Part shown: positions 15,895 through 18,123 of the stretch, piece by piece
Layout: the number at the start of each line of letters is the position of its first letter
How positions within the stretch are numbered: position 1 is the stretch's first letter
Assembly (NCBI RefSeq): GCF_013122565.1
Contig: NZ_CP053258.1
Direction: 5' to 3' (one strand)
From: Escherichia coli
GTDB lineage: Bacteria; Pseudomonadota; Gammaproteobacteria; Enterobacterales; Enterobacteriaceae
Length of the DNA: 64,000 nucleotides
Made by a program: the position numbers and the translations under genes
The notes under the pieces: model-generated
What the model saw: only the letters and a program-made list of their open reading frames with translations
The model's database searches: none
Told to the model about the DNA's origin: nothing

Positions 15895-17328
15895 CTAATT
15901 ATTCTGATAAATATCTTTATACAAACGGCTTTCAAAACGCACTAACGGAATACGGCGATTACGCTGATCTGCTGGTTCTACTGCATAGCCAGAAAGATAT
16001 TGTACAAATGCCATTCGTTGCCCGCTCGCCGTGGTAATGAATCCCGCCAGGTTATATACCCCCTGCAGCGAACCTGTTTTCGCTGAGACTTTACCATCCA
16101 CGCCCGCCTGATGCAGACCTGCACGGTACTGTAAAGAGCCGTCATAGCCCGCCAGCGGCAGCATGGAGATAAAGTTAAGTTCATTGTCGTGTTGGGCAAT
16201 GTATTGCAGCACCTGCATCATGGTGGCGGGGGCAATCAGGTTATGCCGCGAAAGCCCTGAACCATCGGCAATAATGGTGTTTCCAATATCGACACCGGCT
16301 TGCTGGCGCAGGATCTGACGTACGGCGTCCGACCCGGCCCGCCATGTTCCAGGCACATTGAAGCGCGCATGGCCTATCATGCGGAAAACCGTATCGGCGA
16401 TCATGTTGTCTGACTTTTTCAGCATAATCTTAAGCAGATCGTGCAGCGGGGCCGATTGTTTACTGGCAACTACCGTTCCAGGTTCATTAACCTGAGTCTG
16501 GCGCAGCAGTGTTCCGCTCCAGGTGATACCCGCCTGTTTTAACTCATCTTTCAGAATTGCCCCGGCATAGCTGGCTCCATCCTGCACGGCAAAAGCCAAC
16601 GGGAGCGGCTCAGAACGTTGTGGCAGGCATCCCGTCAGCGTAAAGCGGTTCAGGTCGCCTGGTACGACATCCAGTTCGCAGTATTGCGCTTCGGCAGAAC
16701 CACGGGGGAGGGTGCGTACCTGGCTGAACATCGTAACGGGGTAATAAGATGCCACGCGTATAAAAGCCATATCACCAGTTTTTGGGGCACTGTAGAGCGA
16801 GACGGAGAAACAGTTGCGGTCAACTATGGCAGCGGCAGGCGGAGCGCTAAAGCACTGTGTCATATCATTCCATGGCCAGCCGGGGGCTTTATCGTGGCTG
16901 GCGAAAATGGAGGTATCTATAAACACATTGCCATCGATTTCGTTGACGCCAGATTTTTTCAAAGTCGCGACCATATTGCGAATATCCTGACGTTTTAACG
17001 TCGGATCGGCGCCAAATCGTGCTACTAAGTCACCCTTAAGTACGCCGTTTTCCACATTGCCTTTGGTTTCAAGTGTCGTGGTGAAACGAAAATCGGGGCC
17101 GAGTTGAATCAACGCCGCCAGCGCAGTAATCACTTTCTGCGTACTGGCGGGCAGCGCCATCTGCTGACTGTGGTAATCAATAGCGGGGGCCGACGCGCCA
17201 ACTTTTTGCACCATCAGGGCAAGGTTGGCACCTGCGGGGAGTTGAGTAATGTACTCATCAACATTCGCGGCCTGAACACTGAACGCTATACAGCTGGTCA
17301 ATCCGATGATAAATCTGGAAAATCGCAT
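15895..17328 (-). CDS. dacB: D-alanyl-D-alanine carboxypeptidase/endopeptidase PBP4
   Basis: 477 aa ORF with signal peptide; STQK active-site motif (ASTQKVITALAAL). Confidence 0.96.
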   Translation of the reverse strand: MRFSRFIIGLTSCIAFSVQAANVDEYITQLPAGANLALMVQKVGASAPAIDYHSQQMALPASTQKVITALAALIQLGPDFRFTTTLETKGNVENGVLKGDLVARFGADPTLKRQDIRNMVATLKKSGVNEIDGNVFIDTSIFASHDKAPGWPWNDMTQCFSAPPAAAIVDRNCFSVSLYSAPKTGDMAFIRVASYYPVTMFSQVRTLPRGSAEAQYCELDVVPGDLNRFTLTGCLPQRSEPLPLAFAVQDGASYAGAILKDELKQAGITWSGTLLRQTQVNEPGTVVASKQSAPLHDLLKIMLKKSDNMIADTVFRMIGHARFNVPGTWRAGSDAVRQILRQQAGVDIGNTIIADGSGLSRHNLIAPATMMQVLQYIAQHDNELNFISMLPLAGYDGSLQYRAGLHQAGVDGKVSAKTGSLQGVYNLAGFITTASGQRMAFVQYLSGYAVEPADQRNRRIPLVRFESRLYKDIYQNN

Positions 17329-17389
17329 AATCTCGCGCTAACAACCTGGAATCGAGCCGTCATACTACGGCGCAACGCCCTATAAAGTA

Positions 17390-17481
17390 AACGATGACCC
17401 TTCGGGAACTTCAGGGTAAAATGACTATCAAAATGTGAATTGTAGCTGACCTGGGACTTGTACCCGGGTCGGTATTTTTTT
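17390..17481 (+). ncRNA. graL: greA leader / GraL-type attenuated small transcript (approximate bounds)
   Basis: Promoter-like TAAAAT upstream and a stem (GACCTGGG...CCCGGGTC) followed by T7 within the greA 5' leader; coordinates approximate. Confidence 0.4.
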
Positions 17482-17575
17482 GCTTCTGGTCCCGGTGAGG
17501 AGTTATGCCGGGCAGGCCGAACAGCCGGGGTGGGTGAAGACTTGCCCCATCAGGAATATTCAAGAGGTATAACAA

Positions 17576-18052
<477 letters not shown>

Positions 18053-18098
18053 GAATTACCCAATACTCAAGATGTTGATGTATTGTAAAGAAAGGAAA

Positions 18099-18123
18099 AA
18101 GGCCGCTATGCGGCCTTTTATCA
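18099..18123. terminator. Bidirectional terminator between convergent greA and yhbY
   Basis: Stem GGCCGCTATGCGGCC flanked by A-run upstream and T-run downstream. Confidence 0.7.

Follow-up and report, generated by a model that had tools for sequence, protein, structure and literature searches.

Gene order, strain identity and promoters

The window—the whole 64-kb stretch of DNA that was analysed—carries the genes obgE (+), dacB (−), greA (+), yhbY (−), rlmE and ftsH in this order, with the trio dacB–greA–yhbY arranged as in the strain K-12, just in the reverse orientation (K-12 annotation b3181 for greA and b3182 for dacB). The open reading frame of dacB covers positions 15895–17328 of the minus strand, having its ATG at 17328, and is divergent from that of greA, which begins with the ATG at 17576 and encodes a protein of 158 amino acid residues (17576–18052, plus strand). 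The interval of interest, 17329–17575 (247 nt), corresponds to the entire intergenic region between the two genes. On the other side of greA, between the convergent greA and yhbY, there is a perfect palindrome AAAAGGCCGC-TAT-GCGGCCTTTT at 18097–18119; it is symmetric, was scored as a minus-strand terminator and resembles the Rfam families STnc420 and STnc540 below their thresholds. It is probably a bidirectional terminator.

The 247-nt region is present in 5425 of the 5426 complete E. coli genomes, exhibiting at least 99% identity in 5398 of them. In a single genome of the 5426, the greA leader has no match, and among the matches there is one located on a plasmid. Compared with K-12 MG1655, the sequence is identical from the −35 element of the promoter P1 through the termination zone AU7GCU2, and the GreA protein of the window is identical to K-12 GreA b3181. 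The intergenic region differs from that of MG1655 at two positions only, 17497 (G for A) and 17548 (C for T), both of them lying downstream of the terminator, in the poorly conserved part of the leader. In K-12 coordinates, the P1 start (+1) is 3328864 and the U7 tract covers 3328816–3328810. The locus is almost certainly the E. coli greA promoter-leader region with GraL, i.e. two overlapping promoters P1 and P2, an intrinsic terminator and partial read-through into greA; the element has been known since 2010 and is not new. Since the promoters, GraL and GreA are all identical to their K-12 counterparts, there is strong reason to expect that the window strain would act like K-12.

The first promoter, P1 (sigma-70; 17394–17422, plus strand), is formed by the −35 element ATGACC (17394–17399), a 17-bp spacer and the −10 element TAAAAT (17417–17422); its hexamers gave nine of 12 matches in the promoter scan, and they are situated as expected from the P1 start determined by Potrykus et al. 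(2010, NAR 38:1636, PMC2836576). The second one, P2 (sigma-E; 17405–17432, plus strand), consists of the −35 element GGAACTT (17405–17411), 16 nucleotides of any kind and the −10 element TCAAA (17428–17432), i.e. an exact match to GGAACTT-N16-TCNAA, the consensus as quoted in PMC2836576, and the sole such match in the window, where 0.03 would be expected. The original prediction, made without any database search, had noted promoter-like elements upstream of a hairpin, and these two motifs are indeed present there. In K-12, P1 is dependent on sigma-70 and P2 on sigma-E, both promoters being strong and overlapping, with their starts 11 bp apart (PMC2836576).

The P1 transcription start (+1, an A) is positioned at 17427 of the plus strand, where the greA AUG (ATG at 17576) takes the published number +150 (Dylewski et al. 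2019, IJMS 20:5224, PMC6829880), and the P2 start (also an A) at 17438, 11 bp downstream of it (PMC2836576). The bases 17427–17428 (AT) and 17438–17439 (AA) are consistent with the published priming by ApU and ApA, respectively. At the level of the sequence, the two promoters overlap, and their predicted starts would precede the terminator stem, which begins at +19 (17445) by the P1 numbering, by 18 and 7 nt. When the window is compared with the published GraL coordinates, a check suggested together with the original prediction, all the landmarks match base for base: the 11-bp stem, the AU7GCU2 zone, the 11-bp spacing of the starts, the AUG at +150 and the 18 nt ahead of the stem.

The terminator hairpin and the short RNAs

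The GraL terminator hairpin (17445–17473, plus strand) reads GCTGACCTGGG-ACTTGTA-CCCGGGTCGGT and has an 11-bp stem with a 7-nt loop ACUUGUA; according to the sequence and the terminator scan, seven of its 11 pairs are G-C and three are G-U. The stem is followed by A17474, seven T residues (17475–17481) and GCTT (17482–17485). This termination zone (17474–17485, plus strand), ATTTTTTTGCTT, equals the AU7GCU2 that follows the ‘11 bp stem’ in the published description (PMC2836576). It is a GC-rich stem-loop with a U7 tract just one base after the stem, as is characteristic of an intrinsic (Rho-independent) terminator. A hairpin with seven T residues had originally been proposed at approximately 17447–17481, roughly 100 nt upstream of the greA start; the positions were correct within 2 nt, and the distance from the last T to the greA ATG (17576) is 95 nt.

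In the scan of the 2-kb neighbourhood, the hairpin was the strongest terminator site. Its fold has an energy of −21.4 kcal/mol (z = −4.2), and none of the 200 shuffled sequences was equally stable. When the 59-nt GraL RNA was folded, the minimum free energy structure, which contains the terminator hairpin, made up 51% of the ensemble, without a competing helix, the 5′ segment from +1 to +18 (17427–17444, plus strand; AUCAAAAUGUGAAUUGUA) being mostly unpaired.

The published GraL lengths are 49–59 nt for the RNAs from P1 and 37–47 nt for those from P2 (PMC6829880). Counted from 17427, the former place the 3′ ends at 17475–17485, i.e. at U7GCU2. The longest P1 form, 59 nt, mapped in this way onto the window would extend over 17427–17485 of the plus strand, the shorter forms having either an earlier 3′ end or a start at 17438. 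The short transcript of about 90 nt anticipated originally is too long by 30–50 nt; by the published starts and lengths, the short RNAs are of 37–59 nt because the starts at 17427 and 17438 lie just 18 and 7 nt, respectively, before the stem. It should be mentioned that the lengths of the P2-derived RNAs were given as 40–50 nt in 2010 (PMC2836576) and 37–47 nt in 2019 (PMC6829880), and that the 11-nt offset from the P1 forms predicts 38–48 nt; accordingly, either 17438 or 17439 may be the start of P2.

With regard to the behaviour in K-12, approximately two-thirds of the transcripts from P1 and P2 terminate at GraL and about one-third reach greA (PMC2836576, PMC6829880), the evidence for the termination comprising Northern blots, transcription in vitro, assays of transcript release and lacZ fusions (PMC2836576, PMC6829880). 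Both the K-12 identity and these two studies support the original view of a GraL-type terminator that gives rise to a short leader RNA as well as to the full-length greA mRNA. A literature search for genome-wide 3′-end mapping that names GraL in E. coli (including PMC4161252) returned citations of it only and no independent coordinates.

The 3′ ends of GraL are scattered over approximately 10 positions, as mapped to ±2 nt (PMC2836576). Such an unusual heterogeneity, together with the bands P3 and P4 obtained by primer extension in the greA leader, which are probably processing sites (PMC2836576), might suggest that the short RNAs are products of processing or degradation, or that they belong to paused complexes, instead of being terminated. 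[quoted passage not shown]

The rest of the greA 5′ untranslated region in the read-through mRNA spans 17486–17575 (plus strand) and contains the Shine-Dalgarno sequence AGAGG at 17563–17567. The fold of the whole leader was not significantly more stable than those of its shuffled versions (z = −1.75), and since this part is also poorly conserved in sequence, no structural claim is made for 17486–17575.

Conservation of GraL and of the block upstream of it

In order to collect related loci, one genome per species was scanned with a 15-base pattern located upstream of the transcript; the choice of loci was thereby kept independent of the terminator. The pattern yielded 120 hits, about two-thirds of which were chance matches in unrelated phyla; retained were only the 44 non-K-12 loci that have a GreA N-terminus downstream, within 149–249 nt of the pattern. 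They include Citrobacter, Enterobacter, Klebsiella, Kosakonia, Pantoea, Erwinia, Serratia, Yersinia, Pectobacterium, Dickeya, Brenneria and others. The alignment consisted of 39 sequences from Enterobacterales, beginning with the P1 start and ending past the T-tract.

Without any guidance, RNAalifold recovered from the 39 sequences the same 11 pairs, eight of them with compensatory double changes. The stem cells of the alignment are paired in 92.5% of cases versus 21–59% if the partners are slid by 1–3 columns, the number of the cells with a double change is 46 versus 15 in shuffles, and none of the 500 shuffles attained any of the five measures of covariation used. A comparison of four species has previously revealed 17 of 18 stem mutations to be structure-preserving (PMC2836576). 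The identity to E. coli amounts to 0.68–1.0 over 17359–17488, falls to 0.22–0.55 over 17489–17548 and is 0.63–0.81 over 17549–17578, around the ribosome-binding site; because of the sharp drop just past the terminator, the constrained unit is the promoters with GraL and not the remaining leader. The first six columns of GraL (ATCAAA) are nearly invariant in the alignment.

The U-tract varies among the lineages: Escherichia and Citrobacter have AU7, Yersinia and Acerihabitans a U8 without interruption, and the majority of the remaining genera U4CU4 or a similar tract; these differences could bear on whether the imprecise termination is lineage-specific. In more distant Enterobacterales, the upstream promoter block is kept but the element downstream of it diverges. 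This holds for Plesiomonas, where another hairpin is followed by the U-tract U6GU5, for the four loci of Photorhabdus, in which a hairpin is followed by an interrupted U-rich run, and for Morganella, where no terminator was found within 92 nt and greA is 235 nt away.

The region matches the complete model (positions 1–124 of 124) of the Rfam family RF01769, ‘Enterobacteria greA leader’, scoring 127.5 bits (E = 1.9e-24; gathering score 60), and, as expected for this family, it immediately precedes greA in the same orientation and is divergent from dacB. As regards the terminator, the model and the consensus obtained independently with RNAalifold are in agreement. The possibility that the hairpin and the T-run arose by chance and have no function may be dismissed: terminator-like patterns do arise by chance in this region, with six observed against 2.7 expected, but the stability of the hairpin expressed by the above z-score, the score to a curated family and a cross-genus covariation not equalled by shuffling are all at odds with it.

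The match to RF01769 extends over 17359–17480 (plus strand), of which only 17427–17480 is inside the mapped transcript. The model positions from 1 to approximately 68 (17359–17426) thus precede the mapped starts, and the third hairpin of the model (through 17429) straddles the P1 start. The family presumably derives from the study by Naville and Gautheret; if so, its beginning 68 nt upstream of the P1 start would follow from defining the candidates from the end of the upstream gene. It is in Naville and Gautheret 2010 (PMC2965389) that the enterobacterial greA-leader motif is reported. As another possible source of RF01769, the paper by Weinberg et al. 2010 (PMC2864571) was considered, and it was rejected as it contains no mention of greA.

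On computational grounds, Naville and Gautheret proposed the leader to be a classical regulated attenuator or riboswitch with an upstream antiterminator, reporting ‘a clear antiterminator structure’ for the greA and rnk leaders (PMC2965389), and the Rfam model indeed has three more hairpins upstream of the terminator. Their candidates were delimited, however, by the end of the upstream gene and by the terminator, without information on the start sites (PMC2965389), and these hairpins (17359–17429) are upstream of the start site or across it and overlap the hexamers of P1 and P2 as well as, on the other strand, a possible dacB promoter. Moreover, no compensatory change was found in them among the 39 sequences, every variant breaking a pair: such variants are present in 13 of the 39 sequences at 17360–17397, in 16 at 17400–17405 and in 14 at 17416–17428, with the reservation that the 3′ arm of the first hairpin is fixed by the search pattern (17384–17399) and only pair-breaking changes are visible there. 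The transcript itself leaves only 18 nt between the P1 start and the stem, without complementarity to either arm of the stem, and the terminator dominates the ensemble, no antiterminator helix being found in the fold of the 59-nt GraL RNA. The search for a leader peptide reading frame or an aptamer in the leader was negative as well, Rfam finding no riboswitch family here. Two candidate leader peptides were rejected: the AUG-UGA at 17433–17438, located 7 nt from the P1 5′ end of GraL and the sole start codon within +1 to +18, lacks a Shine-Dalgarno sequence as well as conservation in other genera, and the 50-residue reading frame beginning with TTG (17458–17610) runs into greA in another frame and falls within the stretch of lowest conservation. 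Finally, GreA increases the termination and does not relieve it (PMC6829880). A regulated attenuator is, on the whole, very improbable. The term attenuation used in the original prediction holds only loosely, since the terminator has neither an antiterminator nor a leader peptide and is largely constitutive, with its efficiency raised by GreA (PMC6829880).

As for the block 17359–17426, the more plausible reading is conserved promoter DNA, and not an RNA structure. A candidate divergent promoter of dacB, TTTACT-18 bp-TAGTAT, was observed on the minus strand from 17391 down to 17362; with eight of 12 matches it is below the threshold of the scan, and it underlies the most conserved block of all, 17359–17368 (identity 0.94), whereby 17384–17399 was invariable owing to the search pattern. 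Judged from its motifs, this promoter would start the dacB mRNA about 25 nt before the ATG at 17328, near 17352–17356 if TAGTAT (17367 down to 17362) serves as the −10 element. One may speculate, albeit with rather low confidence, that 17359–17426 is a shared DNA control region comprising the greA promoters P1 and P2 and the divergent dacB promoter, perhaps with a site for the factor involved in autoregulation or with a coupling of dacB and greA under envelope stress. If true, the ATCAAA segment together with the change from U7 to U4CU4 might explain the lineage differences in the precision of termination.

Function of GraL in cis and its reported action in trans

The full region gives an approximately 4-fold lower reporter activity than P1P2 alone, and the terminator alone accounts for the drop (PMC2836576). 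In vivo, GreA represses its own gene about 3-fold (PMC6829880), and this autoregulation needs a catalytically active GreA and both parts of the GraL sequence, the hairpin and the segment from +1 to +18, the native promoter not being required (PMC6829880); the segment from +1 to +18 was recognised, by scrambling it, as required for the full effect (PMC6829880). More GreA results in vivo in more GraL and less read-through (PMC6829880). Because the effect of GreA is absent in vitro, an accessory factor has been invoked (PMC6829880), from the candidates for which Hfq, the Nus factors and sigma-E have apparently been excluded (PMC6829880).

GraL has also been reported to act in trans, with the nudE mRNA as a likely target (PMC6829880); its overexpression alters more than 100 transcripts and its presence improves fitness (PMC2836576). 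It could thus be argued that the element mainly makes the trans-acting RNA and that the effect on greA is a by-product of its position. This seems unlikely, however, in light of the approximately 4-fold rise of the reporter upon removal of the terminator and of the requirement for GraL in cis in the GreA autoregulation, and the authors of the 2019 study argue that the cis role came first (PMC6829880). It should be pointed out that the roles in cis and in trans are compatible with each other, so that the difference is one of emphasis and not a true alternative.

The mechanism with the terminator acting in cis on greA is almost certainly as follows. P1 (sigma-70, 17427) and P2 (sigma-E, 17438) would fire 11 bp apart, and the RNA polymerase would transcribe the 11-bp GC-rich hairpin after 18 nt (from P1) or 7 nt (from P2), and then AU7GCU2. 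About two-thirds of the transcripts would be released over approximately 10 adjacent positions as the GraL RNAs of 37–59 nt, and about one-third would pass through the remaining 90 nt of the leader into greA. With two-thirds of the transcripts released, the terminator would therefore keep the output of greA far lower than its promoters' strength would allow. The terminator would also be the point of the GreA feedback, as more active GreA would lead in vivo to more GraL and less read-through via the accessory factor, and the released GraL may additionally act in trans, the nudE mRNA being the likely target. Of these elements, the anatomy of the locus, its K-12 identity, the Rfam membership and the covariation of the stem come from the present analysis; the starts and lengths, the termination of two-thirds of the transcripts, the release, the GreA dependence and the activity in trans are taken from the literature.

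Among the small RNAs derived from 5′ untranslated regions, the Listeria SreA riboswitch, as cited in PMC6829880, resembles GraL in that a promoter-proximal intrinsic terminator frees a short RNA reported to act in trans and limits the downstream gene. In contrast to the SreA type, GraL possesses neither a ligand-binding aptamer nor an alternative structure, GreA with the accessory factor raising the termination without any switching. The rnk leaders of Enterobacteria and Pseudomonas share with the greA leader a premature terminator upstream of a gene for a GreA-family paralogue (PMC2965389), and that study found the greA and rnk leaders to have no common feature of sequence or structure (PMC2965389).

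For a genome scan, the locus has the value of a positive control, i.e. a validated element recognised from the sequence alone. GreA acts globally as a transcription fidelity and anti-arrest factor, and its level is set largely by the GraL terminator. GraL itself is unusual, being an intrinsic terminator with its 3′ ends spread over approximately 10 positions and, at the same time, a small RNA with reported activity in cis as well as in trans.
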